From NCBI GenBank assembly GCA_963842525.1, contig CAWJGT010000009.1, positions 1,536,001-1,600,000 on the forward strand: a stretch of 64,000 nucleotides of DNA. Direction: 5' to 3'. Position 1 is the first letter of the stretch, and every line of letters begins with the position of its first letter. Shown in pieces: positions 2 to 64,000 of this stretch. The stretch is from an uncultured Holophagales bacterium. GTDB taxonomy: Bacteria > Acidobacteriota > Thermoanaerobaculia > Multivoradales > UBA5704. The notes below the pieces were generated by a model. The model was given only the letters and a program-made list of their open reading frames with translations. It was not told where the DNA came from and ran no database searches. The translations under genes were made by a program, and so were the position numbers.

Positions 2-3000
2 CTCGGCCGCCTCGACGACCAGGTCAAGGTGCGCGGTTTCCGCGTCGAGCCCGGCGAGGTCGAGGCGGCGCTGGCGGCCCACCCCGCAGTCGCCACCTGC
101 GCCGTGGTGGCGCGGCCGGACGGCGCGGGCGGCGCCTTCCTCGTCGGGTACGTCGTGCCGGCCGGGGCCAGCGGCCTGGCCGCGGAGGAGATTCTGCGGT
201 TCCTGCGCGAGCGGCTCCCTTCCTGGCTCGTCCCCTCCCGCCTCGTCGCCGTGCCGGAGCTGCCGCGGACCTCCAGCGGCAAGGTGGACCGCCGCGCTCT
301 GCCCGAGCCGTCCGCCGCGCCGGCGGACCCGGGAGCCGCGCCTCGCACTCCGGCCGAGGAGCTGATCGCCAGCATCTGGGAGAACCTCCTCGGCCTCTCC
401 GGCATCGGTGCCCAGGACGACTTCTTCGCCGTGGGCGGCCACTCGTTGCTCGCCGCCCAGGCGGCGGCGCGCCTGCGCGAAGCCTTCGGGGTCGAGGTGC
501 CGGTCGCCACCCTGTTCACCAATCCCACCCTCACCTCCCTGGCCCTCGCCCTGGACGAGGCCCGGCGGGGGAGCGCCCGGGAAGAGATCCCCCTGGAACG
601 CCGGCCTGCGGGGCTGGAGACGGCCGAGGCGGGTGGCCCGCCGCTCTCCTTCGCCCAGGAGCGGCTCTGGTTCCTCCAGGAGCTGTCCCCGGGGACCGCG
701 GCCTACAACGTCTTCACCGCCACCCGCCTGGAGGGCCCGCTGGACGTGCCGGCCCTCCACTGGAGCCTGGGCCGGGTCACGGCGCGGCACGAGTCGCTGC
801 GCACGGTCTTCCCGCGCGGCGGCACGCGGCCGGTCCAGCGGGTCACCGCCTGGCCGGGGCCGGCGCTGCCGGTCGTCGATCTCACCGCGCTGCCGCCGGC
901 GGCTCGCGAGGCGGCGGCGCGGCGCCACCTGCGCGAGGAGGCCGCCCGCCCGTTCGACCTGGAGGCGGGGCCGCTCTTCCGCGCCCTGCTGCTGCGCCAA
1001 GGCGAAGCCACGCACGACCTGCTCCTCACCCTGCACCACATCGTGGCCGACGGCTGGTCGATGGACGTCCTGGCGCGGGAGCTGGCAGCCTTCTACGGCG
1101 CCGCGGCGCCGGCTCTTCCCGCTCTCCCGCCCCTGGACATCCAGCCCGCCGACGTCGCGCGCTGGCAGCGCGCGGCGCTGAGCGGCGGCGCCCTGGCGCC
1201 GCAGGTCGCCTACTGGCGCAGCGCCCTCGCCGGAGCCTCCGGCACCCTCGATCTGCCGATCGACCGGCCGCGGCCGGCGGTGCAGACCGACCGCGGCGGC
1301 GCGGTCCCGCTCACCCTGCCGGCCGAGGTGGCGCGCGACCTGCGCGCCGCCGCCCACCGCGAGGGGGCGACCGTGTTCATGGCCCTGCTCGCCGGCCTGG
1401 CGGCGGTCCTCCACCGCTACACCGGCGAGGAGGACCTGGTGATCGGCACCCCGGTGGCGCACCGCACGCGCAAGGAGCTGGAGGGCCTCGTCGGCCTGTT
1501 CGTCAACACGCTGCCGCTGCGCTGCGATCTGACGGGGGACCCCACCTGGCGCGAGCTGCTGGGCCGCGTCCGCGGCACCGCTCTGGGCGCCTACGTCCAC
1601 CAGGACGTCCCCTTCGAATGGCTGGTCGAGGAGCTGCACCTGCGGCGCGACCTGTCCCGCGGCCCCCTGTTCCAGGTGATGCTCTTCCTCCAGGAGGGTA
1701 TCGGCGCCGGCCTGGCGCTGCCTGGCCTGCGTTGCGCGCCGGTGCCGCTGCACAACGGCACCGCCAAGCTCGACCTCACCATCTCCCTCACAGCGATGGA
1801 CGGTGCGCTCGACGGCGGCATCGAGCTGAACGCCGCCCTCTTCGACCTCCCCACGATCGAGCGCCTCGCCGGGCACTTCGGCTGCCTGCTGCGGGGCGGC
1901 CTCGCCGACTCCGGCTGCCACCTGTCGGCGCTCCCCCTCCTCGACGAGGCGGAGCGCCACCAGCTCCTGGCCGGCTGGAACGGCACCGCCGCCGCGGGTG
2001 GCGCCACGGCGAGCCTCTACGATCTATTCGCCGCCCAGGCGTCCCGTACCCCGGAGGCGGCCGCGGTCCACTTCCGCGACCGGTGGCTGTCCTACCGGGA
2101 GCTCGCGGAGAAGGCGGAGGTCCTCGCGCGGCGGCTACGCGCCCTCGGGGTGGCCGCGGGCGACCGGGTGGGTATCTGCCTCGAGCGTTCGGCGGAGCTG
2201 CCGGCCGCCCTGCTCGGGGTGCTCGCGGCCGGGGCCGCCTACCTGCCGCTCGACCCCGCCCTGCCGGAGGCGCGGATCGCCGGAATGGTCGAAGAAGCCG
2301 CGCCGGCCGCCCTGATCGTGCGCCGCGGCTCCCGGAGAGGGTCGGCGGCCTGCCCGCTCGTCTTCGTGGACGAGGACGGCGAGGGCGCACAGCTGCCCGG
2401 GGCCGGACCCGGAGCCGAGGCTCCGGCGTACCTGATGTACACCTCCGGCTCGACGGGCCGGCCCAAGGGGGTGGTGGTCACTCACCGCAACGTCCTCAAC
2501 TTCTTCGCCGCCATGGACGAGGTCCTGGCGGCCGACGCGACGGGGGTCTGGCTCGCCGTCACCGGCATCTCCTTCGACATCTCCGTCCTCGAGCTGCTGT
2601 GGACGCTTTGCCGCGGCTACACGGTGGTGGTGCAGGAGGAGCTGCGCGCCACCCCCCGGCCGGCGGCCGGCGCGGGCCGCCCGGCGCGCCCGCTGGACTT
2701 CAGCCTCTTCTACTTCGCCGACGCCGGCGGGGACGCCGACCGCTACCGTCTGCTGCTCGACGGCGCGCGCTTCGCGGACGAGCACGGCTTCGCGGCGGTC
2801 TGGACCCCGGAGCGCCACTTCCACTCCTTCGGCGGGCTCTACCCCAGCCCGGCGGTGACCGGCGCGGCGGTGGCCGCGGTGACCCGGCGGGTCGGCGTCC
2901 GCGCCGGCAGCGTGGTGCTCCCCCTCCACGATCCGCTGCGGGTGGCCGAGGAGTGGTCGGTGGTGGACAACCTCTCCCGCGGCCGGGCCGGCGTCTCCTT

Positions 3001-5889
3001 CGCCTCCGGGTGGCACGCCGACGACTTCGTGCTCGCGCCGGACAGCTACGCCGCGCGCAAGGAGGTGATGCTGCGCGGCATTGACGAGGTCCGCCGCCTC
3101 TGGCGCGGCGAGCCGGTGCGGCGCCGCGGCGGCGCCGGGCAGGAGATCGACGTGCGGATCTATCCGCCGCCCGTCCAGGCCGAGCTGCCGTTCTGGCTCA
3201 CCGCCGCCGGCAACGCCGAGACCTTCCGCGAGGCGGGCCGGCTGGGCGCCAACCTCCTCACCCATCTGCTGGGGCAGAGCGTCGAGGAGCTGGCGGAAAA
3301 GATCGCGGTCTACCGGGCGGCGCGGCGCGAGGCGGGGCACGACCCCGAGAGCGGCGTCGTCACCCTGATGCTCCACACCTTCGTCGGCCGCGACCAGCAG
3401 GAGGTGCGGGCGCGGGTCCGCGGCCCGCTCACCGAGTACCTGCGCAGCTCCGTGGGCCTGGTGGACAACCTGGCGCGCAGCCTGGGCCTGGGCGCCGACG
3501 CCGGCAGCCTCTCGCCCGCGGACCTGGAGGCCCTGCTCGACCATGCCTTCGAGCGCTACTTCGCCACCAGCTCGCTGCTCGGCACCCGTGAGGAGTGCCG
3601 CGGCCGGGTGGCGCGTTTCCAGTCGCTCGGCGTCGACGAGATCGGCTGCCTGATCGACTTCGGGGTCGAGGTCGACGCGGTCCTCGCCAGCCTCGCCGAC
3701 CTGGCCGCCTTGCGCGAGGACGTCCAGGCCGCCGCGCACCGGCAGGCGGGCGAGGACGATTACACCCTCGCCGTCCAGGCCGCGCGGCACGGCGCCACCC
3801 ACCTCCAGTGCACCCCCTCGCTCGCCGCCCTCCTGGTGGCGGACCCGGCCTCCCGGGAGGCGCTGCGCCCGCTGCGCAAGCTCCTGGTGGGAGGCGAGGC
3901 GCTGCCCGCGCCCCTGGCCGAGCAGCTCACCGCGGCGGTGGGCGGGGAGGTCCTCAACATGTACGGCCCCACCGAGACCACGGTCTGGTCGCTGTACGAC
4001 CGGGTGCTGCCGGGCGAGCGGGTGACCCTCGGGCGGCCGCTGCGCAACACCGGGGTCCATGTGCTCGATCCGCGGCTGCAGCCGGTGCCCGTCGGCGTGC
4101 CCGGCGAGGTCTGGCTCTCCGGCGACGGCGTCACGGCCGGCTACTGGCGCCGTCCCGACCTGACCGCCGAGCGGTTCCTCCCCGACCCCTTCGGCGAGAG
4201 CCCGGGCGGCCGCCTCTACCGCACCGGCGACCGCGCCCGCCGCCTACCGGACGGCCGCCTGCACTTCCTCGGGCGCGCCGACCACCAGGTCAAGATCCGC
4301 GGCCACCGCATCGAGCCGGGGGAGGTGGAGGAGGCCCTGCGCCGCCACCCCGGAGTGGCCGAGGCGGTGGTCATGGCCCGCGAGGAGGCTTCCGGCGACC
4401 GCTGCCTCCTCGCCTGGGTGGTCCCCGAAGGGGGCGGCGGCGTGGCGCCGTCGCGCCTGGAGCCCAAGGGGGAGCTGCCGCCCGACCGCCCCCGCTTCCG
4501 GCTGCCCAACGGCATGGTGGTCACCTACCTGCGGGACTTCCAGGCCCGCACCGGCTACGAGGAGGTCTTCGAGGACGAGATCTACCTGCGCCACGGCATC
4601 GAGCTGCCCGACAACGCGTGCGTCTTCGACGTCGGCGCCAACATCGGCTTCTTCAGCCTGTGGCTGCACGGCCGCTGCCGCAACCCGCGGGTCTTCGCCT
4701 TCGAGCCGATCCCGCCGACCTTCGCCACGCTCGCGGCCAACATGGCCCTGTACGGCCTGGACGTGCGCCTGTTCAACCAGGGCGTGGGCGACCGCCCGGG
4801 GCGCGCCGACTTCGGCTTCTACCCCAACGCTCCCGGCCTCTCCGGCCGCTTCGCCGGCACCGCCGAGGACCGCGCCGAGAACCGCGCCATCATCCTTGAC
4901 TGGCTGCGCAAGGTGGCCAATCCCGACGGCGCCGCCGCCTTCTCGCCCGAGGAACTGGAGAAGACCCTCGACGAGCAGCTCCGTGTCGAGACCTGCTCGT
5001 GCGAGATCGTCACCCTCTCCGACGTCATCCGCGAGCACGGGGTCGAGCGCATTGACCTGCTCAAGGTGGACGTCGAGAAGAGCGAGCTCGACGTGCTGCG
5101 TGGCCTGCGTGACGAGGACTGGGGCAGGATCGACCAGGTGGTGCTGGAGATCCACACCCGCGAGCTGCTGGAGAGCATCACCGCGCTCCTTACCGCCAGG
5201 GGCTACCGGCTCGGCGTGGAGGAGGTCGCGGTGGTCGACGGCGCGGCGGCGGAGCACGGCCAGAGCGCGCACGTCTACATGCTCTACGCGGTGTCCGAGC
5301 GGCGGCGAGGGGGGGCGGCGGCCGGCACCCGGCCGGCGCTGTCGCCGGGCGAGCTGCGCCGCCATCTCGCCGCCCGCCTGCCCGAGCCGATGATCCCGGC
5401 GGCCTTCGTGATCCTGGAGACGCTGCCCCGCACCAGCAACGGCAAGATCGACCGGCGTGCGCTGCCGGCGCCCAGCGCCGAGCGGCCGCAGGTGGAGAGC
5501 GTCTTCGTGGCGCCGGCCACCCAGCTCGAGCGGTCGATCGCCGTCGTCTGGCAGGAGGTCCTGCGGCGCGACCGCATCGGCATCCACGACAACTTCTTCG
5601 AGGTGGGCGGCACCTCCCTGCTGCTCGTCCAGGTGCAGACCCGGATGCGGCAGGCGCTGAGACGGGAGGTGGCGATGGTGCAGATGTTCCGCCACCCGAC
5701 CGTCCACACCCTGGCCCAGGCGCTGGCGCGCGACGAGGACACCCTCGATCTGGCGGAGGCCGGTGAGCGCGGGCGCCTGCAGTCCGGCGTCGCGGAGCAG
5801 ACCAGCGCCTTCCGCCGCCAGCGGCAGTTCCTGGAAGACCGCAAACGCCAGAAGGCCTCCCTCGGACGGCCCGAGAGATGGGAGCCGCG

Positions 5890-5893
<4 letters not shown>
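2..5893 (+). CDS. NRPS, 5'-partial: A(C-term)-T-C-A[Gly; LLM monooxygenase insert; FkbM methyltransferase insert]-T
   Basis: Frame is open from base 2 (LGRLDDQVKVRGFRVE, A8 motif), so the GTG at 29 is not the start. T motif GGHSL; C motif HHIVADG (1034); A3 YTSGSTGRPKG; manual code DILQLGMVWK matches the Gly consensus; final T motif GGTSL; stop TGA 5891-5893. Confidence 0.95.
2690..3735 (+). other. Luciferase-like (LLM-class, FMN-dependent) monooxygenase domain inserted between A4 and A5 of the A domain
   Basis: Motifs LDFSLFYFAD, AVWTPERHFHSFGGLYPSP, RVAEEWSVVDNLSRGR, SFASGWHADDF and GVDEIGCLIDFG. It is flanked by A4 (SFDISVLE) upstream and HLQCTPS...GGE...NMYGPTETT downstream. Confidence 0.9.
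4490..5295 (+). other. FkbM-family SAM-dependent methyltransferase domain inserted between A8 and A9 of the same A domain
   Basis: Motifs RLPNGM, YEEVFEDEIY, VFDVGANIGFF, FAFEPIP and IDLLKVDVEKSE. It lies after GRADHQVKIRGHRIE (A8) and before LPEPMIP...NGKIDR (A9/A10). Confidence 0.9.
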
Positions 5894-46400
<40,507 letters not shown>

Positions 46401-46448
46401 AGCAGCTTGCAACGAGATCGGGTAGCAATCGATATCAAGGAGACAGCG

Positions 46449-46484
46449 ATGAATCAAGCACCGGCAGCCGGATTCCCCCTCACC
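46449..46484 (+). pseudogene. Remnant 5' end of an interface-A-T NRPS gene (MNQAPAAGFPLT), homologous to the start of 48655..52002
   Basis: RBS AAGGAG just upstream. Bases 46461-46484 match 48667-48690 at 21/24 nt with identical peptide PAAGFPLT, after which similarity stops. Confidence 0.7.
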
Positions 46485-46679
46485 ACCGCGCCGCGCCACG
46501 TGTTCGACCGCGCCATACACGAGTCGGGGGCGTGCTCCCCGAGCAGATCGACGAGGCAGGTGATCCAGCCCCTGCTGGGCGAGGGTCCAGAGGCACCGCT
46601 GGCTGACGCCCGACTCCCCGTGAGGATGTGGTCAATGTCGTTCGCAATGGAGTCCAATCCCGGCGGAGAGATCTCCGTC

Positions 46680-46708
46680 TTGCGAAGACTCTAGACAATG
46701 GTTATACT
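46680..46708 (+). promoter_or_regulatory. Putative sigma70-type promoter TTGCGA-N17-TATACT upstream of the radical SAM gene
   Basis: -35 TTGCGA at 46680-46685 (4/6 to TTGACA), 17-nt spacer, -10 TATACT at 46703-46708 (5/6 to TATAAT). It lies in the only long intergenic region of the window. Confidence 0.6.
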
Positions 46709-46912
46709 TGCTCGCTTGCTAGTGATTGGAGTTGCCCTCATGTTGTATCTACTGGCTGTCCTCCTCTCTTGTCGAGCTTCTTCGAACGGCGGGGGGATCG
46801 GGCGGCGCTTGGTGGCCTGCATCCTCGCCGGGCGATCCTTCTCGGGTTCCCGGCGGATCCTGGTAGTGATGGGGGACGGTGCGTTCCGAAGATGTTTGGA
46901 ATTCTCGTCCTC

Positions 46913-46928
46913 TTTTGAGTTCTCAAAA
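46913..46928. promoter_or_regulatory. AT-rich inverted repeat TTTTGAG-TT-CTCAAAA, candidate operator
   Basis: Perfect 7-bp arms with a 2-nt spacer, about 35 nt upstream of the GTG start at 46964. Confidence 0.35.
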
Positions 46929-46963
46929 CAATTTGACGGCGCAGCCGTTCAGGAGATCCGACT

Positions 46964-48622
46964 GTGAATGATCAGATTTCTCTGGACTGCATGGTCATAG
47001 GCTATAACGAGACCCCCTTCGAGCGATATGAGCAACTGCTGATGCAGTACGGGAGGGATACCGAAGCGTACCGCGACCTGCAACTCAGCTTTGTCGAGGT
47101 AGACGGACGGAAGCTGACTTATGCGGGGCTCCTGAGCTCGCTGTGGCACCAGGCCCGGGGCGCGTCCGACCCATGCCGGCAGGGGCCGTTCAAATCCGGT
47201 GACATTCCCAACCTTGCCGCAGTCTATCTCACTATCTATCTGCGGCGGCAGGGATTCACGGCGGACTACCTCAATCTTTTCCAAGACGAGAAGGATCGTT
47301 TGGCCGATATCCTCGCGCACGGAGTGCGTACAGTAGCGATTACCACAACGTTCTATGTTCTTAACTTCCCCGTGACCGAGATGGTCCAGTTCATCCGCAG
47401 CATCGATAGTGGAGTGAAGATCGTGGTGGGGGGGCCCCTCGTTGCAAACCATCTCCGCAATTACCATAACCAGGGCGATCTGATTACGGCATTGGACGAC
47501 ATCGGTGCTGACATCTATGTCCATGACTCGCAGGGTGAATGGACGCTCTGCCAAGTCCTGGCTGCTTTGAAGGGCAAGGGGGACCTCGGGCAGGTCCCCA
47601 ACCTGATCTACCGAGAAAACGGAACTTATCACCGCACGGCTGCACATGGGGAGAACAACTCGTTGGACGAGAACGCCATTGACTGGCGGATGCTGTCGGA
47701 TCACGACCTCGGGCCAACACTGCAGACCCGGACAGCGCGCAGCTGCGCCTTCTCCTGCTCGTTTTGCAACTACCCAACCCGTGCTGGTCGTCTGACTCTC
47801 GCCGGTCTCGACACATTGGAGCGGGAATTCAATTCGATGCGCGACTTGGGGAATATCGAGAATGTGATCTTCATCGATGATACCTTCAACGTGCCGCTGC
47901 CGCGGTTCAAGGAGATTTGCCGGCTTCTCATCGATCGTCAGTACGGTTTCAACTGGTACTCATATTTCCGGTGCAGTAACGCCGATGAGGAAACCTTCGA
48001 TCTCATGGCCGCGAGCGGATGCAAAGGTGTGTTTTTAGGTATTGAATCGGGCTCGCCGCGCATTCTCAAGAATATGAACAAGGCGGCAACAGTCGAGAAG
48101 TACGCAAATGGAATACGCAACCTCAAAGAGCGTGACATCCTCACCTTCGCATCCTTCATCGTCGGCTTCCCCGGGGAGACGCCGGAGACAGTGGGGGAGA
48201 CGGCCGAGTTCCTCACCAGCCACCGTCCGGACTATTATCGGGTCCAGCTCTGGTACAACGAACCAGGAACTCCGATCCATGACCAGGCCGATACCTACGG
48301 CATCATGGGAGACGGCTTCGTCTGGAATCACAAGACGATGGATAGCATGGAGGCGATGGATCACATCGAGCGACTGTTCCTGACCATCGATGGCCCCATC
48401 TGGTTGCCGCAATGGTCGTTTGATTTCTGGATCATTCCCTATTTTATGGGAATGGGGATCAGCCGCAAACAGTTCGATCATCAAATGCGGCTCGCACAGC
48501 AGCTTCTCAGCCTCGAGATCGCGTCCGTTGGACGGAGTACGCGTGAGAAGTTGCAGAACGAAATTCTGGGCGCCATGAAACGGGACATCGCCGGCTGGAA
48601 CCCCGCAGTCTCCAGCGCGTAA
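46964..48622 (+). CDS. Cobalamin-dependent (class B) radical SAM methyltransferase, PhpK/BcpD-like, 552 aa
   Basis: CxxxCxxC motif CAFSCSFC at 47744-47767. N-terminal B12-binding-like region (VAITTTFY...KIVVGGP). Class B motifs FIDDTFN, LGIESGS and FIVGFPGET. RBS AGGAG at 46951-46955. Subfamily assignment is from recall, not a search. Confidence 0.88.
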   Translation: MNDQISLDCMVIGYNETPFERYEQLLMQYGRDTEAYRDLQLSFVEVDGRKLTYAGLLSSLWHQARGASDPCRQGPFKSGDIPNLAAVYLTIYLRRQGFTADYLNLFQDEKDRLADILAHGVRTVAITTTFYVLNFPVTEMVQFIRSIDSGVKIVVGGPLVANHLRNYHNQGDLITALDDIGADIYVHDSQGEWTLCQVLAALKGKGDLGQVPNLIYRENGTYHRTAAHGENNSLDENAIDWRMLSDHDLGPTLQTRTARSCAFSCSFCNYPTRAGRLTLAGLDTLEREFNSMRDLGNIENVIFIDDTFNVPLPRFKEICRLLIDRQYGFNWYSYFRCSNADEETFDLMAASGCKGVFLGIESGSPRILKNMNKAATVEKYANGIRNLKERDILTFASFIVGFPGETPETVGETAEFLTSHRPDYYRVQLWYNEPGTPIHDQADTYGIMGDGFVWNHKTMDSMEAMDHIERLFLTIDGPIWLPQWSFDFWIIPYFMGMGISRKQFDHQMRLAQQLLSLEIASVGRSTREKLQNEILGAMKRDIAGWNPAVSSA

Positions 48623-48654
48623 TTGTGCCCTCGGCGAAGACTTAGAGGGTGTTT

Positions 48655-51600
48655 ATGGATAACCAACCGGCAGCGGGTTTCCCGCTCACCGAAAGCCAGC
48701 GGAGGCTCTGGTCCCTACGTCAGCAGGGGCTGGCGCCGCGAATTGCCTGCCTCGTTGATCTGATCGGAGAGTTCGAGCCCCAACTGGTGCGTAGAGCGAT
48801 AGAGCAGGTGGTACTGCGCCACGAGATGCTACGCACTGGTTTTCTGCGCAGGCCTGGGATGAGATTCCCGCTCCAAGTGCCGCGGGAGGCAGTGGCGGCT
48901 GGTTGGCTGGAGGTAGATCTTACAGAGGCGACAACTCCGGCGGCTGGCGACCGCTTCGAGGAACTCTGGCACCGCGAGCTGGTCTATGCGGCGGATCGCG
49001 AGGACGACCTCCTGAGGGCCGTGTTGATCACAAGGACGGGGAGCTGCTCCCTCTTGATCAGTGTGCCTTCCCTCTGCGCCGATGTTTTCTCACTGCGGCG
49101 GATCGTTGAGGAGGTGGCCCAAGTCTGCGCCGGCGGCGTGGAGGGCCTCGAAGACCCCGTGCCCTATCTCGACGTCGTTGAATGGCAGGGGAAACTGCTC
49201 ACTGGGAACGATGAGGAAGCTACCCGTGGGCGCGCCTTCTGGCGTCGGCAGGACCTCGGGGCGCTTCAGGCGCCATCTCTGCCATTCGAGGGCGGCTCCG
49301 GCCCTGCGCTCCGCGAGGACCGTGATGTGGTCCCCGCGCGAGTCAGCGTAGACACCGCATACGAGCTCCGTGCGGAGCTGTATACGGCTGCCGAGCGGCA
49401 TGGCGTCTCCCGCGTGGAGATCTTGCGTCTGGCTTGGCGGGTTCTGCTGGCACGCCTGTCAGGAGAGTCTACGTTCCTCCTCCACGAGCTCTTTGACGGT
49501 CGTAGCGACGAGCAACTCCTGTCCATGGTCGGCCCCTTATCACGCTGGATCCCACAGCGCGTTGAGGAGGTGGAAGACCACACTCTGGAGGAGGCTCTCC
49601 GCCGGGTCGGACGGCTCCATGTCGACTCCGAGGTCTGGCAACACCACCTGGAGTGGCCTGCGGAGGCCAATCCCGCGGTGGATGAGGCCATGGTGGGGTT
49701 CGTGGTTGAGTCCTGGCCCAGGTTCTCCGCCGGTGCGGGCCGGGCTCTCGCGGTGCGCCGTCGGCAGTCGTGGAGTGAGCCCTTTAAGCTCGTGCTCTGT
49801 TGTCTCGAGCTCGGAGAAGATCTGGCGGTCGAGCTGCATTATGACGCGAGTCGCCTGTCCCGGCCGGACGTGGAGCACACGGCGGCGCAGCTCGCCGTGC
49901 TTCTTGCGGGACTGAGCTCCGTCGAGCCTCGCTTGCGGCGGCTCTCTCTCACCGGCGAATCCGAAAGCCGAGTCCTGGCGCAGCTCTGCCGCGGAGAAGC
50001 GCTTCGGATCCCTGGGCAGCCGGTCCATCGTCTGATCGAGGCCCAGGCGGCGCTGATTCCGTTGGCGCCGGCGGTGATCTATGAAGATCTGGTCCTGTCC
50101 TACGGTGACCTTAATACCCGAGCCAACCAGCTCGGTCGTGTCCTTCGGCGCTTGGGCGTTACGCCCGACACTCCGGTGGCACTTTTTGTCGGACGCTCGC
50201 CCGAGCTGATGGTCGGGATGCTTGCGATCCTGAAGGCCGGCGGGGCCTACGTCCCCCTCGACGCTGCGCAGCCGAACCGCCGGCTTTCGATGGAGTTGGA
50301 CGACTTGGGGGTGCGGGTCATTGTTACGGAGAACGGTCTAGCCTCTCGGCTGTCCGATTTCCCCGGCGCGGTGGTCCGCATCGATGGCGACCAGGAGGAG
50401 ATCTCATGCGAGCCGAGGGTGGATCTCGAAAGGGGAAGCCTGCCGGAGAACCTCGCTTACATCATCTTCACCTCGGGGTCGACAGGCCGCTCCAAGGGGG
50501 TGGCCGTGGAGCACCGGCAGCTCCTCAATTACATTGAAGGGATCCGGACCCGGCTCAGCCTGGGGACGGGTTGGAGCTACGCCAACGTGTCCACGTTCGC
50601 GGCGGACCTTGGGAACACCACGGTATTCCCTGCGCTGACGAGCGGTGGCTGCCTGCACCTCGTCGCGCAGGAGAGGACTGCGGACCCCGCAGGCATGGTC
50701 GAGTATTTCGAACGGCACCCGGTGGACTGCCTGAAGATCGTGCCGACCCACCTGGAGGCCCTACACGCGATGGCCGAGCCGGAGCGCCTGCTGCCGCGCC
50801 GTCGCCTGGTACTGGGAGGGGAGGCCTCAAAGGTCCGGCATAGCGAGGAGCTGTCGCGGATTGCGGGGGAATGCCGGGTCTTCAACCACTACGGCCCGTC
50901 GGAAACCACCGTCGGCGTGCTCACGTACCCAGTGCCCACAGCCCTTGACAGCCGCTGCCGAACGCTCCCCATCGGCAGCCCGCTCCCCAACACCAGCGTC
51001 TATCTCCTCGACCGTGAAGGCAAGCGAGTGTCGGTCTGGGAGCCGGGAGAGATCCACATAGGCGGTGCCAGCGTGTCGCGCGGGTACTTCGGGCGTCCGG
51101 AGCTGACCGCCGAGAGCTTCGTGCCAGACCCCTTCGCGACGGAGCTGGGAATGCGGATGTACCGGACGGGGGACCTCGCCCGACTCCTGCCGGAAGGGAG
51201 TATCGAGTTCCTCGGTCGTCGCGACCACCAAGTCAAGTTCCATGGCTTCCGGGTGGAGCTCAACGAGATCCGGACACTGCTGAACACGCACCCGCAAATC
51301 CGCGACAGTGTGGTGCAGGCGATACGCGACCGGAATGGCCGCGACGCCCTGATCGCCTACTACGTCTCCCGCCAAGAGCTGGAGTTCGGCTCGCTGCGCG
51401 CCTGGCTCGCCCAGAGACTCGCCGAGGTGATCCTCCCCAACTTCTTCGTCCATCTGCGCAAGCTCCCTCTCACTCTGAACGGCAAGATCAACTATCAGGC
51501 GCTTCCCGGCATCGAAGAGGCCAAGCAGCAGGCGCGGAGCTCCTTCATCGCGCCGCGCACCGAGACCGAAGAGGAGGTGGCGAGAATCTGGTCCGAGGTT

Positions 51601-52002
51601 CTGGGTATCCATCCTGTAGGTGTAGGGGCCAATTTCTTCGAGCTCGGCGGGCACTCGCTCCTGGCCACCCGCATTATCTCCCGGCTGCGTGAGAGGTATC
51701 AGATCGACCTGCCGCTACGCGCGATCTTCGACACGCCAACCGTGGCGGCCCTTTCACGGTCCGTTGAGGCGCGGGCGGCGTCGGCCGCGGTGCCGCTGGC
51801 CGGCATGGGAGCGGAGCGGAGCATTGAGGACGATCTGGCCGAGTTGGAAGGGATCACGGATGAGCAAGCGCAAATCCTTCTTGAAGGCGCCGCTGATCAC
51901 CCCCAAGCGATCCCCGCGATGAAGGAGGCGATTCATCGACTTGCAGCGCTATCGTCCGGAGAAGCTTGCGCTTCCGCCACCGGAGAGATCCAGGATGAGT
52001 GA
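48655..52002 (+). CDS. NRPS interface(C-like, non-catalytic)-A(Asp)-T, 1115 aa
   Basis: The C-like domain has SVPSLCADVFS in place of HHxxxDG. Code DLTKVGHVGK matches Asp. T motif GGHSL. ATG 48655 follows GAGGG; GTG 48649 is an alternative start. Confidence 0.9.
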   Translation: MDNQPAAGFPLTESQRRLWSLRQQGLAPRIACLVDLIGEFEPQLVRRAIEQVVLRHEMLRTGFLRRPGMRFPLQVPREAVAAGWLEVDLTEATTPAAGDRFEELWHRELVYAADREDDLLRAVLITRTGSCSLLISVPSLCADVFSLRRIVEEVAQVCAGGVEGLEDPVPYLDVVEWQGKLLTGNDEEATRGRAFWRRQDLGALQAPSLPFEGGSGPALREDRDVVPARVSVDTAYELRAELYTAAERHGVSRVEILRLAWRVLLARLSGESTFLLHELFDGRSDEQLLSMVGPLSRWIPQRVEEVEDHTLEEALRRVGRLHVDSEVWQHHLEWPAEANPAVDEAMVGFVVESWPRFSAGAGRALAVRRRQSWSEPFKLVLCCLELGEDLAVELHYDASRLSRPDVEHTAAQLAVLLAGLSSVEPRLRRLSLTGESESRVLAQLCRGEALRIPGQPVHRLIEAQAALIPLAPAVIYEDLVLSYGDLNTRANQLGRVLRRLGVTPDTPVALFVGRSPELMVGMLAILKAGGAYVPLDAAQPNRRLSMELDDLGVRVIVTENGLASRLSDFPGAVVRIDGDQEEISCEPRVDLERGSLPENLAYIIFTSGSTGRSKGVAVEHRQLLNYIEGIRTRLSLGTGWSYANVSTFAADLGNTTVFPALTSGGCLHLVAQERTADPAGMVEYFERHPVDCLKIVPTHLEALHAMAEPERLLPRRRLVLGGEASKVRHSEELSRIAGECRVFNHYGPSETTVGVLTYPVPTALDSRCRTLPIGSPLPNTSVYLLDREGKRVSVWEPGEIHIGGASVSRGYFGRPELTAESFVPDPFATELGMRMYRTGDLARLLPEGSIEFLGRRDHQVKFHGFRVELNEIRTLLNTHPQIRDSVVQAIRDRNGRDALIAYYVSRQELEFGSLRAWLAQRLAEVILPNFFVHLRKLPLTLNGKINYQALPGIEEAKQQARSSFIAPRTETEEEVARIWSEVLGIHPVGVGANFFELGGHSLLATRIISRLRERYQIDLPLRAIFDTPTVAALSRSVEARAASAAVPLAGMGAERSIEDDLAELEGITDEQAQILLEGAADHPQAIPAMKEAIHRLAALSSGEACASATGEIQDE

Positions 52003-55000
52003 GCTCCAGCGGCGAATTGCAAAGCTTTCCCGAGATAAGAAAGCATTGTTGGTTTTGCGAAACCCGCTGTCATTTGCCCAGCGGCGTCTTTGGTTCCTCG
52101 AGCAGCTCGAGCCTGGCAACGCGTCTTACAACGTGCCGGCCGCGTTGCGCTTTTCGGGTCCGCTGGATGTCGGCGTGCTGCGGCGCAGCATGGCCGCAGT
52201 CGTAGCGCGTCACGCGATCCTTCGCACCTCGTTTCCTTCTTTTGACGGGCAGCCCTTCCAGATGGTCTCTCCTCCGTCGGAGATCCTTCTGCCGCTCGTG
52301 AGCCTGGAGATGCTTCCACCCGACTTGCAGGAGAGCGAAGCCCGGTGCATCGCTGAGCGGGAGGCCAGGCGCACCTTCGATCTCTCCGAAGGACCTCTGC
52401 TGCGAGCTAGCCTACTTCGTTTGGCAACAGAAGAGCACATCTTCCTTCTCAACCTGCACCACATCATCTGCGACGGCTGGTCGCGGGAGGTCCTGGTGCG
52501 GGAGGTGGCGGAGCTGTACGACGCTTCGTCGGCCGGGCGGCAACCGCACCTGCCTGAAGTGCCGATCCAGTATGTAGACTACGCCCGCTGGCAATATTCA
52601 TGGCTCAAGGGTGAGCAGGCGCGGATTCAACTCGCCTACTGGCGTCATCGCCTTGAGGGCTGCCCACCGCTGCTTGACTTGCCGACGAACCGCCCGCGGA
52701 AAGCCACGCCAAGCCATCAAGGGCGCGAGACGCACCGCCGGTTGCCTGAGTGCATTAGGGATGACCTCGACCGTTTGAAGAGAGAAGAACGAGCGACCAT
52801 CTTCATAGCCTGCCTGGCGGTCTTCAAGATATTGCTCTACCGGCTCTCTGGACAGCGTGATATAGCGGTAGGCACCCCAGTGACCAATCGTACCTGGTTG
52901 GAGACTGAGGGGCTGGTCGGCCTCTTCCTCAACATGCTGGTGCTGAGAACCGAAATACAGACTTCCTGCACGTTCCGACAGCTGCTTGCGCGAGTCCGGG
53001 AAGAGACCCTAGAGGCTTATGATCACCAGGACCTGCCATTCGAGTTGCTCGTGGACGAGCTACGACCGGAACGGAACTTGGGGGCTCACCCGTTGTTCCA
53101 GGTGATGTTCACCGAGGTGGAATTCCGGCCTGCACAGGCTTCACGGATAGGACTTCGAATCGAGCCCCTGGTCTTGGAGCGGCGGGCAGCCAAGTACGAC
53201 CTGAGCCTCGGCATCGGTGTCTGGAGCGACGGTATAGGTATCAATGCGGAGTGGCGGACTGAGCTGTTCGATGTGGCGACTGTGATACGGCTGCTAGGCC
53301 ACTTCGAAACATTGCTGACCTCGGCGGTGGCAAACCCCGATCGCCTCGTCAATGAGCTGCCGATCTTGACTGAGGGAGAGCGCTGGCACCTCATAGGAGA
53401 GTGGAACGATACGATTATCGATCAACCCTCCAAATGTATTCACCATCTGTTCGAGCAGAGTGCAGCCGAGGCCGGTGACCGCATTGCGCTCCTGTTCGAA
53501 AATCACTGCCTTACCTTCTCCCAGCTCGATTGCCTGGCGAACTGCGTCGCCGCACGGCTATTGGAGCTCGGACTAGGGACCGAAGCACCGGTGGGACTCT
53601 ATCTGGAGCGATCGCCGGAAATGGTGATCGGCATGCTCGGTGTCCTCAAGGCCGGAGGCTCCTATGTACCGCTCGATCCAAGTTTTCCGGAGGATCGGCT
53701 TGCCTTCATGGCCCAAGACGCCGGAGTCGAGATTCTGATGACGGGGCCTGAGCCTCCTGGAGGCCTCAAGCAGTGGGCAGTGCATACGATACACATCTGT
53801 GCCGAGGAGATATTGACGGCGCAAGCCCCCTTTCGTGCACGGGCCGAGCGGGTTCTGCCAGAGAACGTGGCTTACGTCCTCTACACCTCCGGCTCGACAG
53901 GACGTCCGAAGGGAGTGCGGATCACCCATCGCGCGGTCGTGAATTTCCTGTCTGCGATGGCGCGGCGCCCCGGATTAACGGAGCGGGACGTCCTCCTCGG
54001 CGTCACTACCCTGTCCTTCGACATCGCTGTCTTGGAGATCTTCCTGCCTCTTGTCATCGGAGCGCGACTGGTGCTCACCGGCCGCCGTACCTTGGCTGAC
54101 GGTCCGGCCCTGCTGCGCGCTCTTGAACGCTCGCAGGCGACGGTGATGCAGGGTACGCCCGCCACTTGGCGCCTGCTCCTCGCATCCGGCTGGCAGGGCG
54201 ATGGGCGGTTGAAGGTTTTGTGTGGAGGTGAAGCGCTGTCGCCGGATCTGGCGGATGCGCTGTTGCACGCCGGCGGCTCGCTGTGGAATCTTTATGGCCC
54301 CACTGAAACCACCGTGTGGTCGGTCACCGGAGAAGTGACGGCGGCAGGCGCGCCAATACCGATTGGTCGCCCGATCGCCAACACCAAGATCTATGTCCTT
54401 GCAAGCAGGCTCGCGCCGGCAGCGTTGGGCGCAGCGGGTGATCTTTATATCGGCGGCGACGGCCTGGCTCGGGACTACATCGGGCGCGCCGACCTCACCG
54501 CGGACAGCCTGATCCCCGATCCCTGGAGTGCCTCGCCAGGTGCTCGCCTCTACCGAACCGGTGATCGCGTGCGCTACTTCTCCGATGGTCGCCTTGAGTT
54601 TCTCGGCCGCAACGACCAGCAGATCAAGCTGCGGGGTCATCGCATCGAGTTAGGAGAAGTGGAGACCATTCTGGCACGCCATCCAGCCGTAGCGCAGACA
54701 GCGGTGGCGTTGCGCAGGGATGCTTCCGGGGAGAGCTGCCTCGTGGCCTATGTAGTGGCCTCTGGAGGTGACTCACCGGCGGCAGGTGAGCTGCAGCGAT
54801 TTCTGAGAGCGAAGCTGCCGCTCTATATGGTTCCAGCCGTCTTCATGATTCTAGATCGCCTTCCGTTGACACCCAATGGCAAGGTGAACCGCCGTGCTCT
54901 GCCCGACCCTGATGAACTGCGCAAAGCGGGCAGGCAGTTCGCTCCGGCGCAGACCCTGGTCCAGCAGAAAATCGTCGACGTCTGGGAGGAGGTGCTCAAG

Positions 55001-58000
55001 CTGCCGGGGATCGGCATTGCGGACAACTTCTTTGAGCTGGGGGGGCACTCCATACTTGCCACGCAGGTCATGGCCCGCCTGCGCAGCTCATTCGGGATTG
55101 AGGTACCCCTGCGAGATCTGTTCGAAGCTCCGACAGTAGCCGAAGTGAGCGAGCGGATCGAGGCCGCGCTGCGAGGGAGGATCGGTCTCCAGGTCCCCAC
55201 CATCGTAAAGCTTCCCAACCGAGATCGCATACCTCTATCGTTCGCGCAGCAACGGCTCTGGTTCCTAGATCAATTGGAGCCCGGAAGTTCCGTCTACAAT
55301 ATGTCCGTGGCTGTTCAGCTCCAGGGGAGTCTCGATGTCAGCGTCTTGGAGCGTACACTGGCCGAGATCATGCGGCGCCATGAGACGCTGCGGACCACCT
55401 TCTCTCTCGCGGGACAGGAACCGGTGCAGGTGATTGCTCTACAGGCTAGGCCAGCCGTGTCAGTGATCGACCTGCGCAACCTTGAGAGCGCGCGGTGCCA
55501 GGCTTTGACACAGCGGATCGTGCGTAGCTCGGCGACCGCGCCGTTCGACCTTTCGCGCCTGCCGCTGCTGCGGGTTTCGCTCCTCCTGCTGGCCGAGCAC
55601 GATCACATTATCCTCCTCACGCTGCACCATATCATCAGCGACGGCTGGTCGCTCGGCCTATTGATCCGCGAAATGGCAGCGATCTATGGAGCCTTTTCGC
55701 GACAGGCCCCCTCGCCGCTCCCCGAGCTGCCTGTGCAGTATGCCGATTACACTTTCTGGCAACGGGGTTGGTTGCAGGGTGAAACACTCGAGGTGCTTCT
55801 CAACTACTGGCGCAACCAGCTCAGTACAGGCATCTCGCCGATCGAGCTTCCGACCGATCGGCCTCGGCCACAGATCCAGAGCTACCGGGGTGCGCGGCGG
55901 TCCTTCAACATTGCGGTCCCCCAATCCCTCAGGAGCCTGATCCGCAAGAGCGAGGTAACCCTTTTCGCTCTGCTGATGGCGGTCTTGCATGTGCTCCTGC
56001 GCCGCTACTGCGGTCGCACTACCGTGACCGTCGGTTTCCCGGTCGCGAATCGCTCGCATGTAGAGATCGAGAAGCTGATCGGGTTCTTCGCCAACACCCT
56101 CGCGCTCCGCACGGAAATCACAGATCATCTGAAGTTTTCTGAGTTCCTGCAGCGGGTTAGCGAGACGGTTCTGGGAGCACTCGCCCATCAAGATATGCCG
56201 TTCGAGAAGCTGGTCGATGCCCTGGGGCCCGAGCGGGCGCTGGATCAGAACCCGATCTTCCAGGTCATGCTTGCACTCCAGAACGTCCCGTTGCCGACTC
56301 TTGAAATTTCGAAGCTGAGCGTGAGGCCTGTGGGCCTGGAGAGCGGAGTGTCCCGGTTTGATTGGCTTCTCTTCATGGAAGAGAGGGAGGGAAGCCTGCT
56401 CGGCAGCTTCGAATATTGCACTGACCTCTTCGATGCGGTGACGATCGCGCGGACTGTCGGCCACATCGAGTCGTTGCTGGGGAGGGTCGCCGTCGATCCA
56501 GAACAGCGGATCGACGACATCCCTATGCTGACCAGGAACGAATCGCACCAGACCCTGCTCGAGTGGAATGACCCGGGGTTCTCGAGATCTCCTTGGCAGG
56601 ACATCCCACAGCTCTTCGAGAGCCAGACCGAGATGAGCCCCGACACGGTTGCTGTCCGGTGGGAGGGCGACACTCTGACTTATCGGGAGCTGAATGCCCG
56701 GTCAAATGCCCTGGCCCGGCGCCTGCGGGCGCTGGGTGTCGGCCCGGATGTATTGGTCGCGGTCCACCTGGAGAGTTGTCTCGCACTATCCGTTGCGCTC
56801 CTGGCCATTTTGAAAGCGGGAGGTGCCTATCTTCCTCTCGACCCCTCTCATCCCAAGCAGCGGTTGGCCTTCTTGCTGGAGGACGCCGGCGTAGGGCTGA
56901 TCATCGCTGCAAGGGGGCCGGCCGAGGAGCCCAGGGTCCAGGGTATACCGGCCCTGTACATGGCGGAGAATGGGCAGGACGGCTGGGAAAGTGAACGCAA
57001 TCTCACACCCGTAGCGGAAAGTCAAAATCTGGCTTACGTGATCTATACGTCAGGATCGACGGGGAGGCCCAAGGGGGTGGCCATGACTCGCGGGGCTCTG
57101 GGCAACCTGCTGTCCTGGCAGCTCCGACAGTCCCGGCCGGCACCTGGAGCCGGCACCTTGCAGTTCGCTGCAACGACGTTCGACGTCTCCGCCCAGGAGA
57201 TCTTCTCGACCTGGTGTGCGGGCGGCACGCTGGTCCTGATTCCGGAGGCTCTGCGCCGGGACAGCTCCGCCCTCCTCGGTTTCCTCGCAGAATTACGGAT
57301 TGCGCGATTGTTCCTGCCCGTCGTGGCGCTCCAGCAACTTGCCGAGACCGCGCTCCGGGAAGAGCGCCGGCTCTTGCATCTGCGTGAGGTGGCTGTGGCG
57401 GGCGAGCAACTGCGGATCAGCGCGGAAATCCGTGACTTCTTCGAGCAGATCCCCAACTGTCAACTGCAGAACCATTATGGCCCGACCGAGAGCCATGTGG
57501 CAAGCGCCTTTACGCTCCTGGGTCCGCCTGCGACCTGGAGCACACTGCCGTACATCGGAAGACCGATCACCGGCGCAGCGATACACCTGCTGAGCCCATG
57601 TCTGCAGGCAGTACCCGCCGGAGTGGCAGGGGAGTTGTACATCGGCGGCGCAGGCTTGGCCCGGGGTTATATCAGCCGCGTCCAGCTGACGGCGGAGAGG
57701 TTTATCCCCGATGCCTTCAGCGGCGAGCCAGGATCACGCCTATACAGGACCGGAGACCTCGCTCGTCATCTGCCGGACGGCAACATCGAATTTCTCGGAC
57801 GCATGGATGACCAGATCAAGGTGAGAGGCTTCCGCGTCGAGCCGGGTGAGATCGAAGCTGTGCTCTGCCGCCACCCAGACGTCCGGCAGGCCGTGTCCAT
57901 GGCGCGGCAGAGGGCGCGCTACGGGACGGCGATCGTGGCCTACGTGGTCGCTGCCGAAGGGCGCAGCCCCACCGGACACGAGCTGCGACGTTGGCTGAAA

Positions 58001-59848: not shown

Positions 59849-59863
59849 CCGAGGCTACTCAAA

Positions 59864-60889
59864 ATGTCTGAAAAATTGAGCGACAGATTCAATCGGACCA
59901 TTGGTGCTAAACCCAAGTCCCTGTGGCTTTCCAGTGAGGACCCCGTACGATTCGAGCGACTCCTGCCGGAGCGCGATTTGCCTTTGCTGGCCAAGCCCAA
60001 CATGAGTGACATCGATCTGGCCGCCTGGGCAGCGGCCAGCCGCGGACCCGTCGCCGAGCGGCTCACGCGGGCGGGTGGCATCCTATTTCGTGGTTTCAGT
60101 ATCCGCTCTGTCGAAGAATTCGAGCGGTTGTGCAGGGCCGTGTCCCCCGTGCTAATGGACTATAGCGAGAGATCGACGCCGCGCAGTGAGGTCAGCGGCA
60201 AGATCTATACCTCGACCGAGTACCCGGCCGACCAGAACATCCCATTTCACAACGAGCTCTCCTATGCGCAGCGCTGGCCCTTGAAGATCTGGTTTTTCTC
60301 GCTCAAGCCCGCCGCTCAGGGAGGCGAGACCCCGATCGCTGACAGCCGCGCCGTCTTTCGCCGGATTCCCCCCGCGATCAGGGATCGGTTTATCGAGAAA
60401 AATGTGATGTATGTGCGCAACTTTGGCTCGGGACTGGGCTTGAGCTGGCGAGAGGTTTTCCAAACCGAGGAGAAAGCCGTGGTGGAAGATCATTGCCGGA
60501 GAGCTGACATCGAGTTCGAATGGGGGCCAGGAGAGCGGTTGCGAACGAAGGCGATCCGGCCGGCCGTCGCCCAGCATCCTCAGACGGGAGACATCGTGTG
60601 GTTCAACCAGGCGCATTTGCATCATATATCGAGCCTGCCTGCTGCAGAGCGTACCTCCTTGTTGGAGGTCATTTCGCAAGATGAGCTTCCCTTCAATACC
60701 TTTTATGGCGACGGTACGGAGATCGCAGACGAAGACCTGGACGAGATCCGGCAAGCCTACCAGGAGGCCGCGGTGTATTTCCCCTGGGAGGAGGGTGACG
60801 TCTTGATGTTGGACAACATGCTCGTGGCCCACGGCCGGACCTCCTATACGGGACCACGCAAGATCGTGGTGGCGATGGCGGAGGCCTGA
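59864..60889 (+). CDS. Stand-alone TauD/SyrP-like Fe(II)/2-oxoglutarate dioxygenase (probable carrier-bound amino acid beta-hydroxylase), 341 aa
   Basis: Motifs GGILFRGF, IYTSTEYP, IPFHNELSY, GGETPIAD, WFNQAHL and DNMLVAHGRTSY; GAGG RBS at 59851. Confidence 0.92.
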   Translation: MSEKLSDRFNRTIGAKPKSLWLSSEDPVRFERLLPERDLPLLAKPNMSDIDLAAWAAASRGPVAERLTRAGGILFRGFSIRSVEEFERLCRAVSPVLMDYSERSTPRSEVSGKIYTSTEYPADQNIPFHNELSYAQRWPLKIWFFSLKPAAQGGETPIADSRAVFRRIPPAIRDRFIEKNVMYVRNFGSGLGLSWREVFQTEEKAVVEDHCRRADIEFEWGPGERLRTKAIRPAVAQHPQTGDIVWFNQAHLHHISSLPAAERTSLLEVISQDELPFNTFYGDGTEIADEDLDEIRQAYQEAAVYFPWEEGDVLMLDNMLVAHGRTSYTGPRKIVVAMAEA

Positions 60890-60920
60890 GGAAAAGGTTC
60901 CTGTTCGGAGGCCCCAGCAG

Positions 60921-63900: not shown

Positions 63901-64000
63901 GGACACTCGCTGCTGGCTACGCAACTGATATCGCGGGTGCGCAAGGTCTTCCGCATAGATCTCCCTCTGCGCGCTCTGTTCGAGGCGCCTCAACTGGACC
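60921..64000 (+). CDS. NRPS interface-A(Glu)-T, 3'-partial, with a +1 frameshift at ~62424 (sequencing error or pseudogene)
   Basis: The C-like domain has SLPSLCADSWS with no HH. Removing one A from GGAA at 62421-62424 restores LGARPDRPVALCLERS...KAGGAYVPLD. The shifted frame contains YTSGSTGRPKG, FDASVKQ, FDCTPS, LIGGE, NVYGPTECTVD (code DAKDLGVVDK, Glu), NGKVDR and GGHSL up to the window end. Confidence 0.88.

Follow-up and report, generated by a model that had tools for sequence, protein, structure and literature searches.

A glycine adenylation domain with an embedded monooxygenase and an embedded FkbM-type methyltransferase: a candidate in-line route to N-acyl-O-methyl aminals

Introduction

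What becomes of a glycine residue when the adenylation (A) domain that selects it also houses a monooxygenase and a methyltransferase? The question is raised by a 64,000-nucleotide stretch of the genome of an uncultured Holophagales bacterium of the Acidobacteriota (contig CAWJGT010000009.1, positions 1,536,001 to 1,600,000; hereafter the window), in which one A domain of a nonribosomal peptide synthetase (NRPS) is interrupted twice, first by a luciferase-like monooxygenase (LLM) and then by an FkbM-type methyltransferase. The original prediction for this locus was that glycine may be hydroxylated and O-methylated while bound to the synthetase and then handed to a polyketide synthase (PKS). 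We propose, with a probability that we put at roughly 0.6, that the LLM hydroxylates the alpha carbon of the carrier-bound N-acyl-glycyl thioester, that the FkbM insert caps the product as alpha-methoxyglycine, and that ketide extension follows. This reading is built on sequence comparison and on analogy with known systems.

Each of the two insert types, and each insertion site, is already known. Monooxygenase (MOX) domains occur in terminal glycine modules and FkbM-type O-methyltransferases in serine and threonine modules, each on its own. MtaG and MelG, from myxothiazol and melithiazol biosynthesis, are glycine modules with the domain order condensation (C), A, MOX, A, thiolation (T) and thioesterase (TE); their MOX lies between core motifs A4 and A5 (a4-a5), and alpha-hydroxylation of glycine followed by collapse of the carbinolamide is proposed to yield a terminal amide (PMC11411415, PMC10204066), in agreement with what the original prediction had said of them. 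The module in the window resembles them in its glycine A domain, its luciferase-like monooxygenase at a4-a5 and the alpha-hydroxylation proposed for it, a likeness to the MtaG MOX that we set by site, motif, family models and literature rather than by direct alignment. Unlike MtaG and MelG, which are terminal, end in a TE and have no methyltransferase insert, it is internal, lacks a TE, carries an FkbM domain and is followed by a ketosynthase (KS). A second precedent is module 4 of SolF, a glycine module that is likewise internal, houses a flavin monooxygenase (FMO) and passes its chain on for further extension; there the FMO lies at a8-a9, no methyltransferase is present and the hydroxyl stays free. 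Solanimycin B keeps the alpha-hydroxyglycine from this module (PMC10204066), indicating that such a residue can survive further chain extension.

Among A domains interrupted by methyltransferase (M) domains, seven families have been distinguished (Lundy 2020; PMC8341866). Type II M domains, as in KtzH and ColG, sit at a8-a9, have the S-adenosylmethionine (SAM) motif DVGx(N/H)xG and O-methylate T-bound serine. The FkbM insert of the window shares the site and the motif with family 2a, and its equivalence to the KtzH and ColG domains is drawn from these two features and not from sequence comparison. Family 2a acts on serine and threonine side chains, whereas the window has a glycine code, and the sole oxygen available would be the one added by the LLM. 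Family 7 comprises natural di-interrupted A domains, which like ours carry two separate inserts, but these are two methyltransferases, at a2-a3 and a6-a7, where the window pairs a monooxygenase (a4-a5) with a methyltransferase (a8-a9). In the accessible sections of that paper a combination of MOx and M is not among the seven families, and MOx appears only in the introduction and the abbreviation list. In the open-access literature we found no description of an LLM and an FkbM domain in one A domain, and nothing on methoxyglycine biosynthesis. What appears to be new, as far as this literature goes, is the pairing of the two inserts in one glycine A domain, the internal position of the module and its usual hand-off to a KS.

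The glycine module and its two inserts

The module lies at the end of ORF1, an open reading frame of 4568 codons that starts upstream of the window at -7813 and stops at 5893; its last 1963 residues are read from window positions 2-5893, open in frame 2 of the plus strand. Along this translation, Pfam matches come in the order Condensation, AMP-binding (in two stretches), Bac_luciferase, Methyltransf_21/FkbM and PP-binding. The C domain occupies 641-1969 (PF00668, residues 214-656, E 5.9e-90; HHIVADG at nt 1034). It is followed on the same strand, at 2027-5464, by one A domain in which motifs A1 to A10 occur in order and in a single frame, supported in addition by AMP-binding, AMP-binding_C and TIGR01733 matches (Pfam, NCBIfam). 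The N-terminal part of the A domain lies at 2027-2644 (PF00501, residues 676-881) and holds A1 at nt 2087, A2 at 2222, A3 at 2429 and A4 (FDISVLE) at 2573-2593. The first insert, a predicted flavin mononucleotide (FMN)-dependent LLM of the MupA/Atu3671 family, fills 2699-3715. The A domain resumes at 3746-4432 (TIGR01733 and AMP-binding, residues 1249-1477) with A5 (NMYGPTETT) at 3956-3982, A6 at 4103, A7 at 4217 and A8 at 4271-4330, and is interrupted again by the predicted FkbM-type SAM methyltransferase at 4502-5281. It closes at 5378-5464 with A9 (LPEPMIPAAF, 5378-5407) and A10 (NGKIDRRAL, 5438-5464), which contains the equivalent of Lys517. The T domain at 5507-5716 (PF00550, seed mapping and motif) has its serine in GGTSL (5606-5620).

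This C-A(LLM)(FkbM)-T module closes ORF1 without a TE, and the next gene, ORF2, opens with a KS, an acyltransferase (AT) and an acyl carrier protein (ACP). The PKS module so formed spans 5920-8847 on the plus strand (Pfam, translation and seed mapping), with the KS at 5920-7242, its Cys and two His motifs intact, the AT at 7486-8367 (HAFH) and the ACP at 8653-8847. The stretch from AT to ACP is only about 96 residues long, and the module therefore has no ketoreductase (KR), dehydratase or enoylreductase. A C domain at 8926-10257 (+; PF00668, residues 1017-1459 of ORF2, and seed mapping) would pass the ketide-extended chain to the next amino acid.

These positions bear directly on the original prediction, which had placed a doubly interrupted A domain at 2000-5470, with an LLM between A4 and A5, an FkbM methyltransferase between A8 and A9 and a T domain that hands off to a KS. 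The interval brackets the A domain exactly, with A1 to A10 all located, and the Pfam and NCBIfam scan placed each insert at the site named, with the family profiles matched over their full length. The internal character of the module is likewise upheld by the HHIVADG motif of its C domain, the GGTSL of its T domain and the intact motifs of the KS that follows. Our own reading of the ten specificity positions from the core motifs gave DILQLGMVWK, the glycine-type code that had been predicted. In the literature, DILQLGMIWK is the code of glycine domains carrying a MOX and DILQLGVI a glycine code; by this comparison the A domain of the window is predicted to be glycine-specific. We thus confirm an internal glycine module with two enzymatic inserts in one A domain. 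A chance origin of the layout is excluded by the E-values together with the same layout in 104 homologues (see below).

An AlphaFold2 (AF2) model of the whole domain, 1155 residues, reached a predicted local distance difference test (pLDDT) score of 84 and a predicted template modelling (pTM) score of 0.52, a value at which the relative placement of its three parts is unreliable. In Foldseek searches it aligned with A domains of known structure, among them the M-interrupted 5WMM.

The LLM insert was matched by TIGR04020, the NCBIfam model of the MupA/Atu3671 LLMs, at residues 900-1238 (523 bits against a cutoff of 244, profile positions 1-341 of 341), and by Bac_luciferase of Pfam at residues 911-1213 (E 3.6e-45). 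A sequence search identified the OX domain of PuwE as its closest solved relative (PDB 6KET, E 6e-121), and in the Foldseek search with the model the LLM is 52% identical to 6KET over the whole length, with a template modelling (TM) score of 0.92 normalised to the target. By this homology and the confidently predicted fold, the insert is a putative FMN-dependent oxygenase, and it belongs by sequence to a family in which embedded members have been assigned hydroxylation at the position alpha to a carrier thioester. PuwE fits this pattern, as the hydroxyl at C-2 of the puwainaphycin acyl chain is attributed to its monooxygenase (PMC4219810); it differs in lying between PKS and NRPS parts, not inside an A domain, and in having a beta-amino fatty acyl substrate.

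For the FkbM insert, PF05050 (Methyltransf_21/FkbM, Pfam) matched residues 1543-1737 (E 2.6e-16, 60.7 bits against a cutoff of 22.7) over profile positions 1-173 of 173. The SAM motif VFDVGANIGFF lies at 4622-4654, and its DVGANIG core fits DVGx(N/H)xG. Across three FkbM groups, 30 positions are at least 90% conserved, and at all 30 the window insert has the shared residue. Modelled alone with AF2, it took a class I methyltransferase fold (pLDDT 88). We regard it as a predicted methyltransferase and assign O-methylation by family and analogy. In MIBiG, 29 FkbM proteins are counted as O-methyltransferases, four of them experimentally so, and EreM is reported as the only N-methyltransferase, acting on backbone amides (Paoli 2022; PMC9259500); type II M domains at a8-a9 add a second line in O-methylating serine. 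The family assignment made in the original prediction holds on both counts, with EreM as its exception. From their sequences and models, both inserts look active.

The module recurs across bacterial phyla

We compared the A(LLM)(FkbM) region with a collection of 5.8 billion proteins and mapped the architecture of the best 120 homologues (43-64% identity) with domain seeds from the window, which was possible for 118. An LLM and an FkbM domain shared one A domain in 104 of the 120; 14 had the LLM only, and two stayed unmapped. The architecture noticed in the window thus proved to be that of most of the best homologues. Named sources were Acidobacteriota (Thermoanaerobaculia, Pyrinomonadaceae, Blastocatellia), Chloroflexota (Herpetosiphon, Roseiflexaceae), Gemmatimonadota (Longimicrobium) and Nostoc, the nearest being metagenome-assembled genomes of Acidobacteriota. 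In most of the best 120 homologues the module was the last in its protein.

The same genome holds a second C-A(LLM)(FkbM)-T copy on the same contig (1343700-1349917; 59% identity). This paralogue is followed by a stand-alone small FkbM gene and by 12 kb of unrelated genes, encoding a sigma-54 activator, a Ser/Thr kinase with tetratricopeptide repeats, a fatty acid desaturase, Uma2 and a DUF5916 protein. Such neighbours suggest that it may be a terminal module, yet a gene starting with KS-AT-ACP lies just beyond them. Among 40 genomes of relatives, full-length LLM-A-FkbM matches occurred in six, including four of the five from the same genus; the best match was 66% identical, indicating that a close orthologue of the cluster is absent from these genomes.

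When 185,579 species genomes were scanned with an alignment of the FkbM insert, at least 510 loci were confirmed, of which 78 distinct loci were kept. Among the matches listed, these included 15 intact LLM+FkbM A domains and two frameshifted or truncated versions; one 1.9-kb fragment also grouped with the LLM+FkbM inserts. The genome loci added Bacteroidota and brought the module to at least five phyla. By sequence, the cassette is present in over a hundred clusters of Acidobacteriota, Gemmatimonadota, Chloroflexota, Bacteroidota and Cyanobacteria, and is not peculiar to the window.

This distribution also bears on whether one or both inserts might be dead relics in a module that simply incorporates glycine. 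Nothing specific speaks for that; a plain glycine module in ORF3 (code DILQLGLVWK) does precede a KS, and so illustrates that unmodified glycine can be handed on in this way. We consider relics very improbable, given that both inserts are full-length profile matches, that the FkbM insert keeps every one of its conserved positions, that the LLM resembles a solved OX domain so closely from end to end and that the pair has been kept over at least five phyla.

Association of the two inserts

The specificity code DI(L/V)QxGxxWK was found in all 104 LLM+FkbM homologues and all 14 LLM-only homologues among the best 120. Among the matches listed from the genome scan it was present in 15 of 15 LLM+FkbM loci, as opposed to none of 41 A domains interrupted by FkbM alone. 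In 24 of these 41 the code was of what we take to be threonine or serine type, and the rest were mostly of presumed aspartate, asparagine, glutamine or glutamate type. Inserts of the FkbM family at a8-a9 thus accompany other codes too (17 of 41), beyond the serine and threonine substrates described for type II M domains; such loci include L014, L017, L027, L030, L032, L039, L041, L046, L048, L056, L063, L064 and L075, among others, and some of the codes are unassigned.

In a quick IQ-TREE phylogeny of 92 FkbM rows, the 17 glycine-linked inserts and three truncated ones formed one side of a branch with a Shimodaira-Hasegawa approximate likelihood-ratio test (SH-aLRT) value of 100, against 72 other FkbM domains; nearest to the window insert were its own paralogue and a Thermoanaerobaculia locus. 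The strongest support for capping comes from this combination: a type of FkbM domain that otherwise appears with residues offering an oxygen is found with glycine only when an LLM is present, and then in a clade of its own, which by sequence points to the added hydroxyl as the acceptor.

An acceptor further up the chain can be set aside. In the window and the 104 homologues (n = 105), the unit before the module was a fatty acyl-AMP ligase (FAAL)-type loader in 31, an NRPS module in 39 and truncated in six, while 29 proteins started at the C domain; the 39 NRPS modules had 30 different readable codes. With a preceding unit that varies so widely, the methyl cannot go to any conserved residue upstream.

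We also compared the LLM domains in a tree of 66 rows, made up of the window, its paralogue, a random draw of 45 of the 104 LLM+FkbM homologues, the 14 LLM-only homologues, and one LLM-only A domain and four further LLMs from this genome. The 15 LLM-only A-embedded rows, including the one from this genome, were scattered among the 47 LLM+FkbM rows, some of them inside a group with an SH-aLRT value of 100. This interspersion indicates that the same type of LLM serves both architectures and that FkbM was lost or gained more than once.

A shared LLM type invites a different outcome, in which the carbinolamide collapses in mid-line, the lipodipeptide made upstream is released as a primary amide, and the KS receives a glyoxylyl thioester, so that two products result and the methyltransferase acts elsewhere or only modulates timing. 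For MtaG and MelG, the only modules with an a4-a5 MOX that have been named, the proposal accepted in the sources cited above is that the carbinolamide collapses to give a terminal amide, and the end of the protein is where most homologues carry the module. Cleavage would nevertheless leave the FkbM insert without a substrate, although 104 of 104 homologues have kept it along with an LLM and a glycine code, and although it falls into a clade of its own. Where the FAAL directly precedes the module (31 of 105), the loader would make only a fatty amide; moreover, no TE is present to clear the T domain, and solanimycin, as published, illustrates that an internal alpha-hydroxyglycine can survive. 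We judge such cleavage unlikely.

The gene that follows the module was informative as well. A KS came next, either directly or past a small FkbM gene, at 15 of 17 loci, L012 and L013 counted; at the remaining two only a small FkbM gene was visible, and one of these reaches the end of its contig. At the relative's locus L091 the arrangement is the same as in the window, KS-AT-ACP-C without a KR. The distance from AT to ACP in the PKS modules that follow at the loci ranged from 0.8 to 4 kb, leaving room for a KR and more in many of them, whereas the module in the window has none. We considered a KS as an obligatory partner and rejected this, since the relatives' loci L087 and L093 and five of the 104 homologues continue with a C domain.

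Small stand-alone FkbM genes followed the module at ten of the 17 loci (L003, L004, L005, L008, L010, L011, L012, L015, L019 and L038), standing before the KS gene wherever a KS was visible; the window cluster has none adjoining its KS. In the FkbM tree they grouped with FkbM domains that are fused behind KS-AT-ACP (L021, L067) in a clade apart (SH-aLRT 97), and they may methylate the product of the PKS step. FkbM-T didomain proteins make up a separate, well-supported clade (L016, L022, L025, L037, L045, L047, L054, L059); in most cases a free A domain and a KS-AT gene come after them.

The fused and stand-alone FkbM genes lend some weight to a further alternative, that the embedded insert methylates not the hydroxyl but the amide nitrogen of glycine, as EreM would, or the enol oxygen of the beta-keto unit of the next module, oxidation and methylation then being independent decorations. 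EreM is a backbone N-methyltransferase of the FkbM family (PMC9259500), and the 17 FkbM-only A domains without serine or threonine codes are compatible with such an acceptor. Independence predicts glycine-coded A domains with FkbM alone, however, and none was found among the 41. Embedded a8-a9 M domains, as far as the published cases go, act on the substrate of their own T domain, and the FkbM enzymes associated with the PKS step fall into a different clade from the embedded glycine-linked ones. This alternative appears to us quite unlikely.

The proposed route and the points that weigh against it

We suggest that the module works as follows, in line with the original prediction, each inference of which finds backing in sequence comparison or in published work. 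The A domain would load glycine onto its own T domain, and the upstream C domain would acylate it with the lipodipeptide started by the FAAL. The embedded LLM would then hydroxylate the alpha carbon of the T-bound N-acyl-glycyl thioester, the chemistry proposed for MtaG, MelG and SolF. It would have to act after acylation, because a free alpha-hydroxy-alpha-amino thioester would presumably fall apart. The FkbM domain, placed in the A subdomain from which embedded M domains reach the carrier arm, would O-methylate the carbinolamide before it collapses, giving an N-acyl-alpha-methoxyglycyl thioester on the T domain, that is, an N-acyl-O-methyl aminal. The KS of the next protein would extend this with malonate, which in a module without a KR would give a 4-acylamino-4-methoxy-3-oxobutanoyl unit, and the chain would continue through ten more NRPS modules and one more PKS module. 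Inferred parts of this route are where hydroxylation occurs, that the methyl goes to oxygen rather than nitrogen, in which order the steps run and that the methoxy group is kept. What the sequences show is the architecture with its motif order, a glycine code, the families to which the two inserts belong, and that the pair recurs and is inherited together.

Pederin-type N-acyl-O-methyl aminals are made by trans-AT PKS/NRPS systems with the help of separate tailoring enzymes. The likeness lies in an acyl-NH-CH(OMe)-C unit derived from glycine and then extended by a ketide, which is what we predict here. The term pederin-like, used in the original prediction, is apt as far as the glycine-derived aminal goes and otherwise holds only loosely: in the window the downstream PKS module has no KR, and the neighbouring carbon would stay a ketone, besides which no trans-AT and no separate tailoring enzymes would be involved. 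Seen across all clusters, we think it about an even chance that a single trifunctional A domain, usually followed by a KS, represents a widespread and so far unrecognised in-line cis-AT route to a pederin-like N-acyl-O-methyl aminal.

N-acyl-alpha-alkoxyglycines are classical precursors of N-acyliminium ions, and the methoxy group could serve as a latent N-acyliminium electrophile. In a variant of the route, methoxyglycine would be transient: later loss of methanol would give an N-acylimine, to be trapped by ring closure, cross-linking or addition. The argument for this is a chemical one, from the known behaviour of such precursors and from the neighbouring carbon that stays a ketone where no KR is present. 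We recognised no enzyme for a follow-up step adjoining the module, and the varying AT-to-ACP distances of other loci do not indicate any single fixed follow-up reaction. A merely transient methoxyglycine strikes us as rather improbable.

Several points weigh against capping with retention of the methoxy group. Capping is not required for the chain to continue, as internal LLM-only glycine modules and the free hydroxyl of solanimycin B illustrate, and an alpha-methoxy group beside an unreduced ketone may be prone to elimination, such that the final product may not retain it. The FkbM insert family is not restricted to alcohol acceptors, to judge by the 17 of 41 FkbM-only A domains lacking serine or threonine codes, and in EreM one FkbM-family enzyme, on the published evidence, N-methylates backbone amides (PMC9259500). 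The likeness to the type II M domains is one of insertion site and SAM motif only. With the FkbM insert as query, Foldseek returned only generic class I methyltransferases at TM scores of 0.4-0.45, which do not indicate the acceptor atom, and a sequence search for a solved relative gave none at E <= 0.01. In addition, a C domain rather than a KS comes next at L087 and L093 and in five of the 104 homologous proteins, and the whole argument is one of correlation among related, non-independent sequences.

Were alpha-methoxyglycine the product, methyl capping could stabilise an unstable carbinolamide while it is still bound to the assembly line, and cis-AT systems would possibly have a route of their own to the N-acyl-O-methyl aminal. 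Structure predictions would change for more than 100 orphan clusters, mostly from uncultured soil phyla; to our knowledge, standard domain callers do not annotate FkbM inserts. The doubly interrupted domain would also provide a compact, portable part for placing an N,O-acetal in designed peptides and polyketides.

The surrounding assembly line

Before the glycine module, ORF1 encodes FAAL-ACP and two C-A-T modules with the codes DLFNNALTYK and DAWTVAAVCK. ORF2 (5878-15420) overlaps it by 16 nt and has the Pfam order KS-AT-ACP-C-A-T-C-A-T. ORF3, of 10,327 residues, opens with one C-A-T module and the second KS-AT-ACP of the line; seven further C-A-T modules come next, and the protein ends, without a T domain or TE, in a fusion of a C domain with a TauD-type dioxygenase. 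Its opening part (window 15417-21650) is the plain glycine module, which has no inserts and hands to a KS-AT-ACP without reductive domains. The second PKS module is 57% identical to the first.

Behind ORF3 lie genes for a B12-binding radical SAM protein (46937-48619), a C-A-T protein (48646-51999), a C-A-T-C-A-T-C protein (51923-59845) and a free TauD protein (59849-60886). G+C content falls from 72-76% in ORF1-3 (window 1-46400) to about 60-65% in the NRPS genes at 46400-64000, the genome average being 67.5%; the two sets of genes may have separate origins and simply adjoin each other, or they may belong to a single line that was split. At 60807-62678 a C domain is followed by the first 45 residues of an A domain, the remainder of which starts in an overlapping frame at about 62.3-62.4 kb, within an ORF at 62269-73704 that runs past the end of the window. 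A frameshift within an NRPS gene, or else a fault of the assembly there, may account for the split.

Three genes lie directly upstream of ORF1 (window -14694 to -7888). One encodes a DUF3326 protein; another has, as its C-terminal part, a stand-alone LLM with 55% identity to the embedded one; the product of the remaining gene, 907 residues long, has only the N-terminal lantibiotic-dehydratase domain. Farther out, at -16 to -20 kb, are Mutator-family and Mu-type transposase genes.

One further LLM locus of this genome has an LLM-only A domain, placed at the end of its protein; two others are stand-alone LLMs, and the rest are PKS-linked. Among them no myxothiazol-like terminal C-A(LLM)-T-TE module was recognised in a search made without a TE seed. 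On contig C6 (93589-105080), tandem PKS/NRPS proteins carry an LLM between a KS-AT part and C-A-T, an arrangement like that of PuwE.

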